DNA of 32,000 nucleotides from Candidatus Hermodarchaeota archaeon (GTDB lineage: Archaea > Asgardarchaeota > Heimdallarchaeia > Hodarchaeales > Hodarchaeaceae), in assembly GCA_048886185.1 (NCBI GenBank), contig JBHLKY010000019.1, forward strand, positions 60,001 to 92,000. The letters are read 5' to 3'. A model generated the notes under the pieces. The model saw only the letters and a program-made list of their open reading frames with translations, ran no database searches and had not been told where the DNA came from. Of this stretch, positions 11,804 to 19,972 are shown piece by piece (positions within the stretch are counted from its first letter, which is position 1; each line of letters opens with the position of its first letter). The position numbers and the translations under genes were made by a program.

Positions 11804-12520
11804 CTATCCTGGAAAATTTTTGCTTTCTCGAATAAAACGAGCTGGGGTTCCAGCGTAAATTGTATTTGGAGGGATTTTTTGTCCTTTTGTTACAAGAGAA
11901 TTCACCCCAATCACACTGTTGTCTCCGATCTCTGCACCTGGAGCAATAATTGTATTTCCTCCTATTGTAACATTTCTCCCAATTTTAACTGCTGCAATTG
12001 TCAGATATTGATTTTCTGTAACATGAGCAGCAATGATTGCACGCAATCCAATGAAACAGTTATCACCAATTGTAACTAGATGCGAATCAATCATTGTACC
12101 TGATGAAAGATATACATTCTTTCCAACATTCAAACCATATAATCTAAGGAATTTTGCCAAAAACATGGAATATAGATGAGGAATAAAACTAAAAGCTTTC
12201 AACATTGATTTAAAAATCCCTGGAGAGACAATAGTGACACCATATAATTGAGCTAAATCAGAACCATGATAGTATCTTCCTGGTTGTATTTTTGGTAAAA
12301 ATAAACGACAAATTATCTGGGAATGAATGATTCCAAAAGCGATTGAGGAAATGAAGTAAAGAATGGGTAAAAACATTGCTATAATAAGCCAGAGAAGAAA
12401 ATCATTCACTGAAATCATCAATAAATATACAGATATGAACTCTGGTAGAAAAACTGCCATAAAAGTTATGGCTGTGAAGAAAAAATATCCAAATAATCGA
12501 AATTTTGTTATAAATTTCAA
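11804..12520 (-). CDS. Membrane-anchored left-handed beta-helix (hexapeptide repeat) acyltransferase, paralog 1
   Basis: Two N-terminal hydrophobic helices, then LRLYGLNVGKNV, VTIGDNCFIG, AAH (putative catalytic His), VKIGRNVTIG, EIGDNSVIG and YAGTPA. Confidence 0.88.
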   Translation of the reverse strand: MKFITKFRLFGYFFFTAITFMAVFLPEFISVYLLMISVNDFLLWLIIAMFLPILYFISSIAFGIIHSQIICRLFLPKIQPGRYYHGSDLAQLYGVTIVSPGIFKSMLKAFSFIPHLYSMFLAKFLRLYGLNVGKNVYLSSGTMIDSHLVTIGDNCFIGLRAIIAAHVTENQYLTIAAVKIGRNVTIGGNTIIAPGAEIGDNSVIGVNSLVTKGQKIPPNTIYAGTPARFIRESKNFPG

Positions 12521-12551: not shown

Positions 12552-13322
12552 TTAGTGAGGGATGATTTCTTTTACCTGTTTAACCGTTTCAGACGCTTTA
12601 ATAACAAGTTTCTCCAGTCCAGATGCGGGGTCTCCGTCAACATAAAGTAATAATCCCTCGCTAATTTTATAGGCAACTAAATTAGTCGCCTCTGAAGATA
12701 CAACTAGATATCGTAAATTCCTCATATATGTTGAAACATTTAAGAGACGAATAGCTCCCTCCATTCGTGTTTGATCCATTTTATATTCGAGTAGAATATC
12801 CCCAGTGAATGAAACAATCATGGCACCCCTTACTCCTATGTTTTTTTGTTGGACTAATTTTTTCAGATAAAAGAGAGCAGCATTTTTTGAGCTAGTTAAC
12901 ATCTCACGAGTTTCACCCAAAAAGACTTCGTCAACATGATTTTTGAATGGTTCAAATATATCTGTTTCAATAATTTGCATTTCTTCCGCCCGTGTTCCAT
13001 ATTCTGCTAAAAAAAGACTCGAAATAGTAGTTAATTTAAATTGTAAGTCTAATGGACTTACAAGAGGAGAAGCTAATATAGCGAACACTAATCCACCTCT
13101 TTCAATGAAGGAGAATCGGAGATCTGTCATATCAACAACTTTCAAATCGCTCAATGATGTTGATTTAGCGAAAGTGAACATAGCTGTCAAAAAAGCTACT
13201 ACTAGATGGGCATCTGGTGTTTTAGTATCATGAGTTTCGTAAGATCGCGTAAATAGTGTGTTTCCTGTTTCTTTTTCAAAAATGAAAAAAGCTTTTATTG
13301 TCTTGAATTTCTCTAAAGCCAT
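12552..13322 (-). CDS. Longin-domain plus roadblock-like-domain protein
   Basis: N-terminal longin pattern FFIFEKETGNTLFTRSY...LVVAFLTAMFTFAK...VVDMTDLRFSF...VFAILAS...FLAEY...FEPFKNHVDEVF. C-terminal roadblock-like GVRGAMIVSFTGDILL...LVAYKISEGLLLYV. Confidence 0.75.
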   Translation of the reverse strand: MALEKFKTIKAFFIFEKETGNTLFTRSYETHDTKTPDAHLVVAFLTAMFTFAKSTSLSDLKVVDMTDLRFSFIERGGLVFAILASPLVSPLDLQFKLTTISSLFLAEYGTRAEEMQIIETDIFEPFKNHVDEVFLGETREMLTSSKNAALFYLKKLVQQKNIGVRGAMIVSFTGDILLEYKMDQTRMEGAIRLLNVSTYMRNLRYLVVSSEATNLVAYKISEGLLLYVDGDPASGLEKLVIKASETVKQVKEIIPH

Positions 13323-13337
13323 GTTGAACTGAACTCC

Positions 13338-13907
13338 TCATTCATCTAAGATATATTTCTTAGCTGTAAGATTTAAGATTCTGGTTGTCATAGTTTGAAA
13401 AGCCTCATTTACATTTTGTCCAGTTTTAGCAGAAGTTTCAACATAATCAATGACATGCATTGCTTTTTGGATTCTTTTTGTTTGAGAACTCGTAAATGCT
13501 CGTTCTTGCTTCAAATCCGCCTTATTTCCAATAAGGATCGATAAACATTTTGGAGAAACTTTTAGAACTTGTGATTGCCACCTTTCTTGCATATTGAGAA
13601 GTGTTTCCCTACGGGTCAAGTCAAAAACATAAAACGCTCCAAGAGCTCCTTTTAAATAGAGATGTGAGTATGAAACATGCCTAGCCTGGCCAGCAATGTC
13701 CCATACTTGTAATGATACAGTCCGTTGTACATCTTTTGTATCAATAAACTTTACTGTTTTAGTAAGAAAATCAACTCCTAAACTCATGCTATATTCTTCT
13801 CGGAACTTATTCTCAATAAAGCGTAATATTAATGATGTTTTACCTACTGCCCCATCACCTAATAGTAATACCTTCAAAATATGTTTAATTTCTTTACCTT
13901 TAGCCAA
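13338..13907 (-). CDS. Rab-like small GTPase (Ras superfamily)
   Basis: G1 GDGAVGKT, switch I YSMSLGVDF, G3 WDIAGQ, G4 NKAD, G5 ETSAK. Start reassigned to TTG at 13907 (MAKGKE), preceded by SD-like GGAGATGGT; about 189 aa. Confidence 0.93.
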   Translation of the reverse strand: MAKGKEIKHILKVLLLGDGAVGKTSLILRFIENKFREEYSMSLGVDFLTKTVKFIDTKDVQRTVSLQVWDIAGQARHVSYSHLYLKGALGAFYVFDLTRRETLLNMQERWQSQVLKVSPKCLSILIGNKADLKQERAFTSSQTKRIQKAMHVIDYVETSAKTGQNVNEAFQTMTTRILNLTAKKYILDE

Positions 13908-14197
13908 ACTACCATCTCCAGCTTTAATGAGTGTCCCGAGACGATTAATGGAATTATAATAATAAAAGGAATATAGTGTGCACCATTTCAAAAGCTTTTC
14001 TTCGAATATTAAAAAGATAGTAACAGTAATAAAAAGGAATGTTCGAATGTGAATAGGAAATATGGTATTTGCTTTATTGTGAAAAGCCAAAAAAAGAATC
14101 TCTGATCCTTCTCGATATTTCAAGGAAAAAATTTGATGAGTAGTCATGCAAATTCTCATAAAGCCTCTTATCTTAGTGCATAGAAGAATTTTTTAGG

Positions 14198-14482
14198 ATG
14201 AAACCTCGGGTGAATCGAGGGTTGGATTCAGAAACAGACCTATCTGGGACAGAAAAGTGGATAGAACTTGTACTAAAGGAGTTAGTAGAGGCTACTACAG
14301 TTGAGATTATTGATCGTGTGAGCATGTTCAATCAGGACTGTGCTGATCGTATACCCATGGTTTTGACTCAAATGCGAATAGATGGGAAGGTCACCTATGA
14401 AGTTGTATCATCTCCTGATGGAAAAAGACAAAATATTGTCTGGAGATTAATTGAATCCAAAAAAACTGTTGAAAATAGATGA
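14198..14482 (+). CDS. Small hypothetical protein, possibly winged helix-turn-helix
   Basis: 94 aa, not overlapping any long gene. Three-helix-then-beta-hairpin pattern (IELVLKELVEATTVEIIDRV...IPMVLTQMRIDGKVTYEV...IVWRL). Confidence 0.55.
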   Translation: MKPRVNRGLDSETDLSGTEKWIELVLKELVEATTVEIIDRVSMFNQDCADRIPMVLTQMRIDGKVTYEVVSSPDGKRQNIVWRLIESKKTVENR

Positions 14483-14498
14483 AACTTTCTTGATTACC

Positions 14499-16196
14499 TT
14501 ATAATAAAAATTCCTGCCCTTCTAAGGGGAAAAATATTTTCGAATAAGTATTAAGGATTGGAATTTTATTTATTACTTCCGATCCTAAATGAATAAGGGC
14601 CATCCTATCAGTTAATGATGCAAGTTTGGTTATCTGGTGATAATTTAAGTGCATTTCATGTGTTGTGTTTAAAAAATTACATTCAGAAATTGTCAATTGA
14701 GTTTTTTTAACAAGATGGTGTAATTCATCTGTCCACCCAGTATCACCTGAATAAGCAATAGAAAGATCTTTCATTTCTAATCTATATCCTTGAGCTTCAG
14801 GAGTATGAAGCATTTTAAAAGCTCTGATGATTAATCCATCCATCTTCAATGGAGAATTAGATGGTGTAAGAACTGAGAATTCACAATAAAAAGGGAGCTT
14901 TTCTTCTGCGATGTTTCCATATAATGCTGAGTAAAGATCATTTGTCTTTCTGTCAATCTCTGGAGGGCCAATGATCATCAGTGGCTTTTTCCTTCGTTGA
15001 AAAATGCCAGCTTCTAGTAGAAAGAACGGAATCCCACCAAAATGATCCCCATGAAAATGGGAGATAAGGATTATATCAACATTATTGGTTTCTCTGCGTG
15101 ATTTCTTTAATGCCTGTATTGTGTGGGGGCCACAATCCAATAGAATTCCTTTATCACCAATTTCTACAAAAACAGAGGCACTTTTCCCTCCCCCTGATCC
15201 AAAAGCGTCTCCAGTTCCTAAAAACACAATATTCATCTTATGAGTTCTCTTTGGTTTGATTATTGTTCCAACAGCTTCTCCATTCAAAGCAGTGCTGAAC
15301 TCTTTGAGTCCTACGACCCAACATTTGGTGTGAGATTTTGCTAATTCAATGATATTCTTCAATTTACCGGTCATTTCATTTGTAACATCAAAGTTTCCTT
15401 TAGTTTTAACATTCTGAAAGGAAAGGATTTCATCATTAATACCAAAATATGATATTTCGTCCGCGTCAACTTCAATTCGAGAAATAAATTTAGCATCAGA
15501 GAAACTTGGATCCTTCGTATATATTCCAGTCCGTTTTCCCTCCACATTAGTAAGAAATATGACTGAATCTAAACGAGTAATGTTAAGACGTCTTGTCAAA
15601 GCTGCAGGATAGATATCACCAGAGAATACTTTCCAACCGCTTGATGTAGAACCAACATCTCCATAAAAAACTGGTACTGCTGTAGTTTCAGTAATTATTT
15701 GTTCAAAAATTGTTAGATCAAAAGCATCAGCTTTTTTTGATGAAGTATTTTCTGTTGGAACACCTCTTAAAATGGGATGGGAAGGGAAAGAGATAGCATT
15801 TATACCATTTTTTATGGCTTCAGATACAATTATTTGATTCTGAATGGCAACTGCAAGTTTGATGAAAGGGTATTGAATATCGAGATCTGAATGGTTCTTT
15901 AATAAATGAATAACCAAGGAATGTCCTATTGAACCAGCCCCATGAATTAATGCTAATTTCCTTTTGGGATTTTCAGCTAAAAACGACGATAAAATCTTAA
16001 GGATTTCATTAAGATAATCAAAGTTAACTAAATCAATAATTTTCTCAGTTAATGTTCCTAATGAACCTGTACCTGATTTAAAGAAGTCTATTTGATCTAA
16101 ATATTGTTTAATGCGATAAGAATCTTTTTTATAAGTTATTAAGCTTCCACCCATTTTAACTAACGTGATTGGCGTTTTCTTCATTCTTTTCACCAA
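14499..16196 (-). CDS. Isopentenyl phosphate kinase (amino acid kinase family) fused to an MBL-fold metallo-hydrolase (RNase Z/phosphodiesterase-like)
   Basis: N-terminal part: LVKMGGSLITYK, LIHGAGSIGH (IPK His), PVFYGDV, FSGD, IYTKDP, DVTNEMTGK, GTII. C-terminal part from 15236: FLGTGDAFGSGG, LLDCG, SHFHGDH, HTPEA, YSGDT, ECN. The reading frame is continuous across the junction. Confidence 0.85.
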   Translation of the reverse strand: MVKRMKKTPITLVKMGGSLITYKKDSYRIKQYLDQIDFFKSGTGSLGTLTEKIIDLVNFDYLNEILKILSSFLAENPKRKLALIHGAGSIGHSLVIHLLKNHSDLDIQYPFIKLAVAIQNQIIVSEAIKNGINAISFPSHPILRGVPTENTSSKKADAFDLTIFEQIITETTAVPVFYGDVGSTSSGWKVFSGDIYPAALTRRLNITRLDSVIFLTNVEGKRTGIYTKDPSFSDAKFISRIEVDADEISYFGINDEILSFQNVKTKGNFDVTNEMTGKLKNIIELAKSHTKCWVVGLKEFSTALNGEAVGTIIKPKRTHKMNIVFLGTGDAFGSGGGKSASVFVEIGDKGILLDCGPHTIQALKKSRRETNNVDIILISHFHGDHFGGIPFFLLEAGIFQRRKKPLMIIGPPEIDRKTNDLYSALYGNIAEEKLPFYCEFSVLTPSNSPLKMDGLIIRAFKMLHTPEAQGYRLEMKDLSIAYSGDTGWTDELHHLVKKTQLTISECNFLNTTHEMHLNYHQITKLASLTDRMALIHLGSEVINKIPILNTYSKIFFPLEGQEFLL

Positions 16197-16466: not shown

Positions 16467-18113
16467 ATGAAAATTACTAAGATTATCTTTATCATACTTC
16501 CTACAAGCATCGTGTGGTTAGTTACAGCTCCTTTTCTCCTAGTTTATGCTTTTGATTTGCTTGAAATAGACATAAATCAGAGTTTATCCAGTTCTGGTGT
16601 GATTCTTCTATTTTTTACTGCAATTTTCGCCACTTTTTCCTTGTATTTATCTGGATACATCATTGATAAGAATCCACAGGTAATCAACACATTAATCACA
16701 GGATCTTTGATAATGAGTGGGATTAGTCTCTTCATCACAGTTCTAGGTGTTGATTTTTTTATTTTTCTTATATTAGGATTGATAAGTCTTGGTTTTTTCT
16801 TGGGAATATTAGCATCAGGAGCTAGTGCACTATATACAGCACATTCAGAGGTCCACCACCGAGGACGTATTTATGCCAGTGCCCTATTCATCAGTGCAAT
16901 TATATCACTAATCATTATCCTATATGTTGAACTCTTTAAGCTAGATATTCGAATTCCTCTCCTTATTATTAGCAATTTGGCGATTCTTGCTGCAATCCTT
17001 TTCTATTATGTTTCTCGCTCATCATCTCCTTGGGTGAATGATAAATTCCCTACTCCAATCAAACATATTATTAATCGGAGATCAGTTAAAGCTTATTTGG
17101 TCGCTCATTTCTTCTTTTATTTTATGCTTGGAATAGCTTTTGCTACTCTATCCCAGATCGGTCATTCACGGTATCCCGATCTACTAGTTACTCTGCCATT
17201 CCTTGGAAAGCTGGCATTAGATCAGACAAAATTATTTTGGATCATTGTTTTCTTTGGTGATTTACTTTGTGTATTACCAATGGGGTGGTTTTCTGATCAT
17301 TTTGGAAGAAAGAACCTTGTTGTAATGGGTTTTTATGGAGTCGTAGTTGCAGCATTAATTGTAGGCTTAAGTGAAAATCCAATAATGTTCTACTTCTCTG
17401 CGTATCTATTAGGGGTCAGCTTTTCAGCGATCCATCCCTCTCTTGATAGTGCTGTATGGTGTGACTTAAGCCCTCTTGACTCTGTAGGACGATATAATGC
17501 CTTAGGTTTCGTTTTTTTACTACAAGGAGTCGGATGTGGTTTAGCGATGGGCATATTTATACTTCCCTTAAGTCCTAGTACTATTAGTTATGTCCTTTTT
17601 GGTTCAGCTGTTTTTGGATTATTTCCCCTCTTTTTTGTAGCAGACTCTTTTGAACCTCTTGATATCTACCTTCTCTTAATTGCTACAAGCGGAATATGCA
17701 TGTTTAATTACGATTTTGAAAGACCAGATCAAAGTAAGATTACTGAAAAAGATCTAGCTCTTGTGGCCGGCGCCTTATCAGCTATTAGTACATTTTTCGA
17801 GGGGATAAGCCAACAACCTGCTGTTTTAGATCTTGTTCGTCATGGTAAAGTGGTGACTTTCCAAACAAAAGGAGGAACAGAGAGAAAGGAGCTCATCGCC
17901 ACAATTTTTACCAACAAGATGGATCCTGAGCTACAACAAAGCCTAGATAGTTTCTTAGCAAGATTTTGTTTATCTTATCATAACGAGATAAATGAGTGGA
18001 TTGGTCAAACTAGTGTTTTTGATCCTGCAATCAGTATCGCTGAAGATGTTTTTGGTCCTCTTATTCCATCTAAAACAGTATTAAGAAGTTTAAAAGAGTC
18101 AGAGATTAACTGA
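16467..18113 (+). CDS. 12-TM MFS transporter fused to a C-terminal longin domain (copy 1)
   Basis: About 12 hydrophobic segments, MFS motif A GWFSDHFGRK and loop HHRGR. From about 17655 a soluble longin pattern: LLLIATSGICMFNYDF...LVAGALSAISTFF...LDLVRHG...IATIFTN...FLARFCLSY...W.G...F. Confidence 0.85.
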   Translation: MKITKIIFIILPTSIVWLVTAPFLLVYAFDLLEIDINQSLSSSGVILLFFTAIFATFSLYLSGYIIDKNPQVINTLITGSLIMSGISLFITVLGVDFFIFLILGLISLGFFLGILASGASALYTAHSEVHHRGRIYASALFISAIISLIIILYVELFKLDIRIPLLIISNLAILAAILFYYVSRSSSPWVNDKFPTPIKHIINRRSVKAYLVAHFFFYFMLGIAFATLSQIGHSRYPDLLVTLPFLGKLALDQTKLFWIIVFFGDLLCVLPMGWFSDHFGRKNLVVMGFYGVVVAALIVGLSENPIMFYFSAYLLGVSFSAIHPSLDSAVWCDLSPLDSVGRYNALGFVFLLQGVGCGLAMGIFILPLSPSTISYVLFGSAVFGLFPLFFVADSFEPLDIYLLLIATSGICMFNYDFERPDQSKITEKDLALVAGALSAISTFFEGISQQPAVLDLVRHGKVVTFQTKGGTERKELIATIFTNKMDPELQQSLDSFLARFCLSYHNEINEWIGQTSVFDPAISIAEDVFGPLIPSKTVLRSLKESEIN

Positions 18114-18295: not shown

Positions 18296-19972
18296 ATGTC
18301 CAATGTGATAAAAGTGAAAATCAAAATAATTTTGACCGTAATTATCCCAAGTATATTCTCTTGGTTGTTAGCTTCCCTATTACTCTTGGTTTATTCTTTT
18401 GATATTTTAGATAAAGTAGAATCGTCAAAAAACAATCCTTTTCTCGGATTTGGAATGTTGATATTGGGTTTTGTATTGTGTTTGGTTATCTTCATGCTTT
18501 ACTATACTGGCTCTGTACTCGATAGCCATCCAGAATATTTATGGCTTTCTGTGATAATAGGGATGGTGGGGAGCTCTATTTCAGTTATTATTTCAATTAT
18601 ATTTTTTGAGGAATATATAATATTGATGATTGGATTGATATGCCTTGCTTTCTTTTTCGGAATATTGTTAACAAGTAATGGAACACTGTTTGCTGGGTTA
18701 ACAGATATGTGGCACCGAGGAAGAGTATATTCATATTGTATCTTCATCTTTATTGCTATTGCCTTACTTAGTATCCTCTTTGGGGGAGTATTTTCGCATG
18801 AATATGAGAGGATTTACCAAAGTGGGATTTGGACTTATAGCTTCACAAGTGTGTTAGTTGTTGTTGGTATTCTTGGACTTATATTTGCTTTAATTTTTTT
18901 CCTTTTAACCCGTAATCTAGGTATCCCTTGGCAAAATGATAAATGGCCAACAAAATTTTCCAAAATCATTGGACGAAGGTCAGTTCGAGCTTATATACTC
19001 TCACACATTTTATTATATACGATGCTTGGTATTTCTTTAGCTAGTTTTTCTCGAATTGGAGAGTTATTGGAAATTTCTTGGGCAATAGGGGAGTATGATC
19101 TCCCTGTTGATAAAACGTTTTGGTTTTTCGTCCTACTTGGAGATCTCCTAGTGATTTTACCTGCTGGGTACCTTGCGGATCGTTTCGGACGAAAAAATTT
19201 TATTGTTGCTGCAATTTATGGATTAGTATTTGCATCATTGATTTTTGGGCTAGAAAAGTCTCCCAATAGCTTCCTCATTGCTGCTTTTGGTATAGGTTTT
19301 TCTTTTGCAATGCTCCATACAACACTAGACTCCTCTTTATGGGCTGATTTATCTCCTCGGGATGGTCTTGGCCGTTATTACTCGATTGGGTTTATTTCAC
19401 TTGCACTTGGTCTTGGAATTGGCTCTGGATTTGGTCATTGGGTTTTAACACCTATGGTTACTGATCTTTCGGGATTAGAATTCATTACATACCTTATAAC
19501 TATTTTAGCAGTTCTATCGGCTTTACCTTTGTTCTGGGTATCAGATAGTTTCAAACCACTTGATTTTACGCTCCTTCTTGTTATTGAGGAAGGAGGACTA
19601 CCAATCTTCGATTACACATTTACAAAAGATATAGATACCAGTATTGAATTAACATTACTTTCAGGAGCTCTCAAAGCCGTATCCTCTTTTATGTCCGAAA
19701 CCATGAAAGACAAAGGCGATTTGAATCTAGTAAGACATGGTAACCACTTTATATTGACTGAAAAAAAGAATGGAACATCTGCTGCTATTTTTAGTAATAA
19801 ACAGGATCCAGAATTACATAAAGCTCTTCGAGAATTTCTTGAAAAGTTCTGTATTAAGTATAATGAAACGCTTAAAACATGGCGTGGAGTTCGGTCTCTA
19901 TTTGATGGTGCTGTTGATATTGCAGAGGAAGTTTTTGGATATCTATCACCTTCAACGAACCTTGAAGAATAA
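18296..19972 (+). CDS. 12-TM MFS transporter fused to a C-terminal longin domain (copy 2, paralog)
   Basis: GYLADRFGRK and WHRGR. From about 19556: LLVIEEGGLPIFDYTF...LLSGALKAVSSFMSETM...LNLVRHGNHFIL...AAIFSNKQDPEL...FLEKFCIKY. Alternative GTG start at 18314 (VKIK aligns with MKIT of copy 1). Confidence 0.85.
   Translation: MSNVIKVKIKIILTVIIPSIFSWLLASLLLLVYSFDILDKVESSKNNPFLGFGMLILGFVLCLVIFMLYYTGSVLDSHPEYLWLSVIIGMVGSSISVIISIIFFEEYIILMIGLICLAFFFGILLTSNGTLFAGLTDMWHRGRVYSYCIFIFIAIALLSILFGGVFSHEYERIYQSGIWTYSFTSVLVVVGILGLIFALIFFLLTRNLGIPWQNDKWPTKFSKIIGRRSVRAYILSHILLYTMLGISLASFSRIGELLEISWAIGEYDLPVDKTFWFFVLLGDLLVILPAGYLADRFGRKNFIVAAIYGLVFASLIFGLEKSPNSFLIAAFGIGFSFAMLHTTLDSSLWADLSPRDGLGRYYSIGFISLALGLGIGSGFGHWVLTPMVTDLSGLEFITYLITILAVLSALPLFWVSDSFKPLDFTLLLVIEEGGLPIFDYTFTKDIDTSIELTLLSGALKAVSSFMSETMKDKGDLNLVRHGNHFILTEKKNGTSAAIFSNKQDPELHKALREFLEKFCIKYNETLKTWRGVRSLFDGAVDIAEEVFGYLSPSTNLEE

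Follow-up and report, generated by a model that had tools for sequence, protein, structure and literature searches.

Does an archaeal small GTPase gene sit beside the gene for its own regulator? Small GTPases number in the dozens in Asgard genomes, longin and roadblock proteins are also numerous there, and the matching of regulators to GTPases is largely unsolved. The question is raised here by a gene pair in a 32,000-nucleotide (nt) stretch of a Candidatus Hermodarchaeota archaeon genome (Hodarchaeales; contig JBHLKY010000019.1, positions 60,001 to 92,000), hereafter called the window. A gene for a Rab-like GTPase is followed directly by a gene for a protein, here called the partner, that is predicted to contain an N-terminal longin domain and a C-terminal roadblock domain. 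An initial annotation had proposed that the two form a cognate GTPase-regulator module. The coordinates and the 15-nt spacing that it gave for the two genes are exact, and both are located on the minus strand.

We consider such a module, expressed as one unit and with a partner that binds the GTPase, to be the best reading of the locus, with a probability of roughly 0.6. According to this reading, the two genes would be expressed together, and the longin-roadblock protein would bind the adjacent GTPase, probably as a dimeric platform. The partner would then control the nucleotide state or the localisation of the GTPase, most likely by acting in a manner similar to a guanine nucleotide exchange factor (GEF). 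We infer the co-transcription, the binding, the stoichiometry and the preference for a GEF over a GTPase-activating protein (GAP) or a scaffold from the evidence presented below.

Recurrence of the gene pair

The order of a GTPase gene followed by a partner gene was found in 33 modules, in which the two are -14 to +20 nt apart. These modules span the orthologous locus throughout the genus, a paralogous pair in the genome that contains the window, a sister family, and genomes labelled as Helarchaeota. The orthologous module, called module A, is present in all checked genomes of the genus, where it is part of a syntenic neighbourhood that consists of a fusion gene for an isopentenyl-phosphate-type kinase and a metallo-beta-lactamase (IPK-MBL), a small divergent open reading frame (ORF), the GTPase, the partner, an optional gene for a transmembrane (TM) hexapeptide-repeat (LbH) protein, and a GNAT gene. 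Since the whole neighbourhood is conserved, the conservation of the pair within the genus says little in itself. The flanks of module A (IPK-MBL, the small divergent ORF and GNAT) are absent from the other contexts in which the pair occurs.

The genome of the window, in which we counted ~39 Ras-like loci in 4.8 Mb, has the full-length partner gene in exactly two copies, each of which directly follows a Ras-like gene. By a rough estimate, a Ras-like gene would be placed directly upstream of one partner gene by chance with a probability of <1%, and of both with a probability of <1e-4. The second pair (C4:93482-94796) consists of a GTPase gene at 93482-93991 and a partner gene at 94002-94796, which is placed 4 nt downstream of the GTPase gene. 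Among the Ras-like loci, none encodes a closer paralogue of the window GTPase than this pair does (43.5% identity), and the paralogous pair is kept in four further genomes of the genus (L059-L062).

Different arrangements of the same two genes were observed elsewhere. One genome from the sister family (L044, G078:C134:1-3710) contains a GTPase gene followed by two tandem partner genes, and by analogy these paralogues could form a heterodimer similar to Mon1-Ccz1. Families f15-17 contributed six loci with the pair. At L040 (G127:C11:382712-386452), the genes are arranged in tandem as GTPase-partner-GTPase-partner beside a third, divergent GTPase gene, and the partner encoded at L038 is identical to a protein labelled Candidatus Helarchaeota by NCBI. 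At three loci from within the genus (L027, L029 and L030), the GTPase and the partner are in the same frame with a single TGA between them (junction at ~1480-1500, and at ~1150-1170 in L030). Apparent GTPase-partner fusions of 445-448 amino acids (aa) at these loci were rejected, as their junctions contain this in-frame TGA. A search of proteins with lengths of 514-2000 aa retrieved no longer or fused form of the partner at E <= 1e-5, which is weak evidence.

In a maximum-likelihood phylogeny, the 17 sampled paired GTPases and one orphan were separated from 30 other GTPases of the window's genome by a branch with an ultrafast bootstrap (UFBoot) value of 94 and an SH-aLRT value of 90.6; a quick tree was also run. 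With moderate support, the paired GTPases appear to form a single clade. The identity matrices of the GTPases and the partners correlate with each other (r of 0.97 overall and 0.84 between groups), but we set this correlation aside as evidence because shared phylogeny alone yields it.

These observations bear on the possibility that the two genes are neighbours whose products do not interact directly, and whose adjacency stems from inherited synteny and from the abundance of GTPase, longin and roadblock genes in Asgard genomes. It would account for the synteny of the entire neighbourhood within the genus, it is in line with the large number of such genes, and it agrees with the lack of linkage among the distant homologs (see below). 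The GTPases of MK-D1, furthermore, are generally located outside operons with roadblock or longin genes, which makes it difficult to match GTPases and regulators (Tran et al. 2024, PMC10933270). However, the gene order and the tight spacing recur in four contexts that have no other genes in common, both full-length copies in the window's own genome are paired, the paired GTPases group together in the tree, and the score of the predicted complex is far above those of the controls. We therefore regard mere proximity as very improbable. The pairing exceeds chance, and the conservation of the adjacency, by which the initial annotation had suggested judging the module, extends to at least four different genomic contexts.

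The GTPase and the predicted folds of its partner

The GTPase matches the Pfam family Ras with an E-value of 1.1e-43 (149 bits, cutoff 21.6). It contains the motifs GDGAVGKT (G1), SLGVDF (switch I), DIAGQ with the catalytic Gln, NKAD and SAK, and has a Ser at the G2 Thr position in switch I. The LGVDF and WDIAGQ segments are similar to RabF1 and RabF2, and switch II (ARHVSYSHLYLKGA) is divergent. The best match among the PDB sequences is a Rab from Thorarchaeota (7ezb, E 1e-31), followed by Rab1, Rab11, Sec4 and Rab5. The top 60 matches are all Rab, Sec4 or Thorarchaeota Rab proteins, and MglA is not among these best 60 of 682 matches (E <= 1e-10). No prenylation Cys was found in the tail, which ends with KKYILDE, and we therefore describe the protein as Rab-like rather than as a bona fide prenylated Rab. 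A membrane anchor was seen in the sequence of neither the GTPase nor the partner.

The partner is less easily classified from its sequence. In a Pfam search with the single protein, the only match was to Fuz_longin_1 (E 0.018, 15.7 bits, below the cutoff of 26.1), and neither the partner nor the other family members scanned matched Robl_LC7 at E <= 0.1. A word-index search identified 40 close relatives with 63-100% identity, among which those with 80-88% identity carry the source labels Hodarchaeales or Heimdallarchaeota. An exhaustive phmmer search against 1.8 billion representatives identified 34 relatives with identities down to ~20%, nearly all of which are 250-270 aa long. Judging from these sequences, the relatives represent a real two-domain family, some members of which have been named Roadblock/LC7/MglB family by JGI. 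No eukaryotic tri-longin protein was among the 34 relatives from this single-sequence search.

Two AlphaFold2 models of the partner were made, one from an alignment of 30 orthologs, with a predicted local distance difference test (pLDDT) score of 72, and another from 61 diverse members, with a pLDDT of 83 and a predicted template modelling (pTM) score of 0.64. Both models show strands (b) and helices (a) in the order bb-a-bbb-aa at residues 9-135, followed by a-bb-a-bbb-a at residues 143-251. When compared by VIA-align, the N-terminal domain (residues 6-138) resembles the longin domain of Sec22b (Z 15.5, root-mean-square deviation (rmsd) 2.9, 127 of 128 residues aligned), as well as VAMP7 (Z 14.9) and synbindin (Z 13.9). 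The C-terminal domain (residues 142-256) resembles MglB (Z 14.4, rmsd 2.4, 112 residues aligned), followed by Roadblock3 from MK-D1 (Z 14.2), the C-terminal domain of RagA (Z 14.1) and LAMTOR2 (Z 13.8), and it carries a C-terminal helix, as do MglB and LAMTOR2.

A profile of the partner family gave similar results when searched against the PDB sequences. The best match was the first longin domain (LD1) of Mon1 (E 9e-4), and the SRX domain ranked third (E 0.0013); Roadblock3 from MK-D1 (E 0.0026), a roadblock protein from Thor (E 0.0093) and MglB (E 0.035-0.07) were also retrieved. Among the members that are linked to a GTPase gene, Asp64, Arg69, Phe80, Phe95, Lys96 and Thr99 are invariant in the longin domain, and the motif Ser171-Phe172-x-Gly174 is invariant in the roadblock domain. 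Both the Rab-like nature of the GTPase and the succession of a longin and a roadblock fold in one chain, which the initial annotation had read directly from the letters, are thus borne out, the former by the Pfam Ras and PDB sequence matches and the latter by structure prediction and profile searches.

Predicted complex

The complex was predicted with two partner chains and one GTPase, each chain with its own alignment. The score was 0.50 (0.54, 0.50 and 0.50 in the individual runs), as compared to 0.01 for the best control, and the runs share at least 86% of the contacts, with a pLDDT of at least 76 for the partner. Of 80 solved complexes, 58 reach the mark set for this score, as do 2 of 110 mismatched pairs. 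Since structures of GTPases with longin and with roadblock proteins exist, the passing score may partly reflect likeness to solved complexes. The prediction gives modest support for binding between the GTPase and the partner, adding to a prior that was already raised by the gene order. The proposal of a cognate module thus stands with regard to the folds, the Rab-like class and the conserved adjacency, while its binding step has the weak support of a score of 0.50 against 0.01.

Candidate activities of the partner

If the partner binds the GTPase, we would assign a probability of ~45% to a GEF-like activity, ~25% to a GAP-like activity and ~30% to a role as an effector or scaffold. The GEF-like activity is favoured because the N-terminal domain is nearest to LD1 of Mon1, Fuzzy and HPS1, and because the domain order of the partner equals that of the first and second longin domains (LD1-LD2) of such proteins. 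LD1 is the Rab-contacting domain of Mon1 and Fuzzy. The 11 best matches in a whole-chain Foldseek search of the PDB are subunits of BLOC-3, Mon1-Ccz1 and CPLANE (E 1.3e-9 to 3e-7, ~280 columns), and the order of the domains is the same as in LD1-LD2 of Mon1, Ccz1, Fuzzy and HPS1. Fuz_longin_1, which represents the first longin domain of Fuzzy, Mon1 and HPS1, is the sole recurrent Pfam family, with sub-threshold matches in 19 of 30 partner members (best E 3.3e-5); the members of the Helarchaeota type reach 25.2 bits, as compared to the cutoff of 26.1. A shape search of the ESM Atlas retrieved an arthropod Fuzzy cluster that aligns over 230 residues of the partner (TM-score 0.61, rmsd 4.9), as well as an Asgard cluster of 136-aa Fuz_longin_1 proteins that matches the N-terminal domain (rmsd 2.0). 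In Mon1-Ccz1 and Fuzzy-Inturned, LD1 is a canonical longin domain, LD2 is of the roadblock type and the third domain (LD3) is of the lamtor type (PMC8833172, PMC6864590).

A different activity is suggested by the second domain. The partner might act like MglB, dimerise via its roadblock domains and stimulate GTP hydrolysis without nucleotide exchange, as MglB does for MglA, and as folliculin (FLCN), NPRL2 and SMCR8 do for Rag or Arf GTPases. The C-terminal domain matches MglB over 112 residues that include the C-terminal helix, the family profile also reaches MglB, and mglA-mglB is likewise a two-gene operon of a GTPase and a roadblock protein. Hydrolysis could be stimulated in this GTPase, as the catalytic Gln of the DxxGQ motif is kept, and GAP-type motifs have been proposed for longins from Asgard archaea (PMC12290439). 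In the loop between strands b1 and b2 of the partner, Gly20 is kept, but at the sequence level GNT takes the place of the GP motif reported by that study. In addition, the GTPase is Rab-like and not MglA-like, and the recurrent match of the N-terminal domain is to the GEF-type Fuz_longin_1. Folliculin, SMCR8, NPRL2, DENN and uDENN were not found in the partner family or in the neighbours scanned by Pfam (E <= 0.1). GAP longins of the folliculin, NPRL2 or SMCR8 type and DENN proteins were accordingly discarded as identities of the partner for lack of Pfam support. Taken together, a GAP of the MglB type is plausible but unlikely.

The partner could also be an effector or adaptor that binds one nucleotide state and leaves it unchanged, similar to SRX with SR-beta or Ragulator with the C-terminal domains of Rag, and that connects the GTPase to, for example, longin-bearing membrane proteins. 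The rank of the SRX domain among the profile matches is consistent with this, and roadblock and longin domains are general platforms for GTPases (PMC6864590). Two MFS transporters with longin-like C-termini are encoded 3-6.5 kb away, and the sequences of both the GTPase and the partner lack an anchor. The transporter genes are, however, not part of the other conserved contexts, the present data contain no pointer to a downstream target, and in characterised cases such as MglA-MglB, a tight operon of a GTPase and a longin or roadblock protein reflects a regulatory relationship. An effector role is thus plausible but unlikely, and a regulator with GEF-like activity is preferred.

A more far-reaching conjecture is that a two-domain relative of the ancestor of the tri-longin Rab GEFs has survived in the partner, which would act as a dimeric exchange factor for the GTPase encoded upstream. 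We regard this as possible but doubtful.

Observations that weigh against the proposed module and a relation to tri-longin proteins

Several results argue against the proposed module. A first set concerns the distribution of the linkage. In a search for homologs in 400 genomes from across the phylum, full-length homologs with ~20% identity were found in family f20, which comprises 135 genomes and is the largest of the groups of distant homologs. At the 18 loci from this family that were examined, the partner gene has no adjacent GTPase gene, and no GTPase was found within ~2.5 kb, except for one Ras-like match ~1.6 kb downstream of the partner. The neighbours in this family (L045-L066) are instead an FAD-dependent oxidoreductase, a thioredoxin, a TrmB-type regulator and GNAT. 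A gene for an FAD-dependent oxidoreductase of ~420 aa is located after the partner homolog on the same strand at 10 of the 18 loci, and divergent thioredoxin and TrmB-type genes often precede the homolog. The idea of a hidden GTPase among these neighbours was rejected, given their identities. Other families of the window's class showed matches of single-domain strength only. The f20 loci show that the partner family can exist unlinked to a GTPase. Conversely, one GTPase of the paired clade in the window's own genome (C9:34371-34940) is an orphan with no partner gene nearby. The linkage is thus lineage-limited and characterises Hodarchaeales and the Helarchaeota-labelled group, and not the whole partner family.

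A second set of results concerns the strength of the matches. When its sequence is compared to Pfam and the PDB, the partner yields only matches that are marginal or below the curated thresholds, and the score of the predicted complex lies in a weak range, in that only 7 of the 80 solved complexes, together with both mismatched pairs that passed, have scores of 0.60 or lower. As for the resemblance to tri-longin proteins, only two domains fit into the 256 aa of the partner, and LD3 is consequently absent. Rigid-body superposition on solved tri-longin subunits was poor, with an rmsd of 12-16 A over both domains, and the likeness is therefore one of domain order, without a demonstrated inter-domain geometry. 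Furthermore, any protein in which a longin and a roadblock domain are joined would retrieve tri-longin subunits, and the two domains may have been fused independently.

Gene models and surrounding genes

The window has a base composition of ~33% G+C, and the features of the module are listed in Table 1. For the GTPase gene, a longer ORF of 273 aa starts with an ATG at 14159, but the 84 extra residues have no counterpart in the orthologs. The 189-aa reading with a start at 13907 is preferred because several orthologs begin with an ATG at the position that aligns with this TTG. A TATA-like, AT-rich stretch located ~44-59 nt upstream of the TTG is a putative promoter, and GGAG, which precedes the start codons of both genes, is found at 13916-13919 in front of the GTPase gene. 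The spacer is too short to hold a promoter for the partner gene alone, and the two genes would then probably be expressed from one transcript.

Table 1. Features of the GTPase-partner module, with positions in the window.
Feature	Position	Strand	Evidence
Rab-like small GTPase, 189 aa, TTG start	13338..13907	minus	Pfam Ras, PDB sequence matches, ortholog starts
Stop codon of the GTPase, TGA	13340-13338	minus	Read from sequence
Intergenic spacer, 15 nt, with GGAG (Shine-Dalgarno-like) at its beginning	13323..13337	minus	Sequence
Longin-roadblock two-domain protein, 256 aa, ATG at 13322, candidate GTPase regulator	12552..13322	minus	Family searches, AlphaFold2, Foldseek, VIA-align, ESM Atlas shape search
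Predicted N-terminal longin domain, residues ~6-138, bb-a-bbb-aa	12909..13307	minus	VIA-align, family profile, Fuz_longin_1 (sub-threshold)
Predicted C-terminal roadblock domain, residues ~142-256, a-bb-a-bbb-a	12555..12899	minus	VIA-align, family profile
5' region of the module, common to the divergent small gene	13908..14197	minus	Sequence only

The divergent small gene (14198-14482, plus strand) is a 94-aa ORF with no Pfam match at E <= 0.1. All 21 orthologous loci from the genus have it at the same position, with 57-78% identity, and the paralogous modules and those of the Helarchaeota type lack it. Its product may be a small protein that regulates the locus. The gene for the 565-aa IPK-MBL fusion (14499-16196, minus strand) is conserved upstream of the module in the entire genus; the fusion consists of a kinase domain of the amino-acid/isopentenyl-phosphate type (Pfam AA_kinase) and a metallo-beta-lactamase domain. 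On the other side, a gene for a TM-anchored LbH acyltransferase (11804-12520, minus strand) starts 31 nt past the stop of the partner gene on the same strand. Within the genus, some genomes have the gene here and others lack it (matches at seven loci, including that in the window), which makes it an occasional neighbour rather than a part of the module.

The two MFS transporters are encoded in tandem (16467-18113 and 18296-19972, plus strand), and each has a C-terminal domain of ~150 aa. Aligned to the profile of the partner's N-terminal domain with hhalign, these domains gave E-values of 1.4e-4 (109 columns, probability 53%) and 3.5e-4 (71 columns, probability 37%), and one of the proteins has a weak Pfam match to Sybindin (E 0.038). 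Based on these matches, the C-terminal domains are probably longin-like, and the proteins are candidate membrane-tethered longins. The initial annotation had counted three longins in 7.5 kb, two of them on transporters; modest profile matches agree with the assignment of the domains, whereas the proximity of the MFS genes does not extend to the other conserved contexts. The same genome contains two additional neighbourhoods of longin and GTPase genes. In one, the gene directly upstream of a Ras-like gene encodes a 567-aa protein that has a longin-like domain in its interior (C6:106155-108696, minus strand), and in the other, a 227-aa longin-like protein is encoded ~1.1 kb from another Ras-like gene (C18:62647-64953, minus strand).

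Comparison with known systems

A full-text literature search on archaeal tri-longin proteins and Asgard Mon1/Ccz1 did not identify a description of the partner family, and a study of the evolution of BLOC and Mon1-Ccz1 reports no archaeal tri-longin relatives (PMC11513930). The module is thus undescribed in the searchable literature, although its general theme is well known. It represents an exception to the location of GTPase genes outside operons and encodes a compact pair of soluble proteins, and the paralogous pairs in one genome would provide built-in controls for specificity. If the partner turns out to be an exchange factor related to Mon1 or Fuzzy, one of the major classes of Rab activators in eukaryotes would have its roots in archaea. 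A GAP or scaffold function would still make the partner the first regulator to be assigned to a Rab-like GTPase from Asgard archaea.

A parallel in gene organisation is the bacterial polarity switch MglA-MglB in Myxococcus and Thermus, where, as here, a two-gene operon encodes a Ras-like GTPase and a regulator with a roadblock fold. However, MglB is a single roadblock domain, whereas the partner has an additional longin domain at its N-terminus, and MglA belongs to a distinct GTPase family with an intrinsic arginine, whereas the GTPase in the window is Rab-like. Among the Asgard archaea, a conserved operon that encodes a LAMTOR1-like roadblock protein, a Rab-like GTPase and a DENN protein has been proposed to be a GEF module (Liu et al. 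2021, 10.1101/2020.10.19.343400). Both that operon and the present module join a Rab-like GTPase to a protein of the roadblock superfamily, but the module has two genes, lacks the DENN protein and has the longin and roadblock domains fused. Structures of an Asgard Rab and of roadblock proteins have been solved, and fusions of GTPases with longin and roadblock domains have been described (Tran et al. 2024, PMC10933270). In these fusions and in Rag-Ragulator, the same building blocks, a small GTPase, a longin and a roadblock domain, are functionally linked. The Asgard fusions contain a Rag/Arf-like GTPase in one chain with the domains, whereas the Rab-like GTPase and the longin-roadblock protein are separate chains here.

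The tri-longin GEFs, which are Mon1-Ccz1 for Rab7/Ypt7, Fuzzy-Inturned for Rab23 and HPS1-HPS4 (BLOC-3) for Rab32/38, have clients of the Rab type, as would the partner. Their subunits are 400-550 aa long and contain LD3, whereas the partner has 256 aa and lacks both LD3 and the alpha-X helix. In each eukaryotic GEF, two paralogous subunits form a heterodimer through LD1-LD1 and LD3-LD3 contacts, whereas each module contains one partner gene, except for the single locus with tandem copies. Unlike the genes for the tri-longin GEFs, the partner gene is physically linked to that of its GTPase, and a GEF activity of the partner is conjectured by analogy. If the conjectured relation to these proteins is true, the activation of Rab proteins by longin platforms, with one dedicated GEF per GTPase paralogue, would predate the eukaryotes, and the duplicated modules within one genome would parallel the expansion of paralogous Rab-GEF pairs in eukaryotes.

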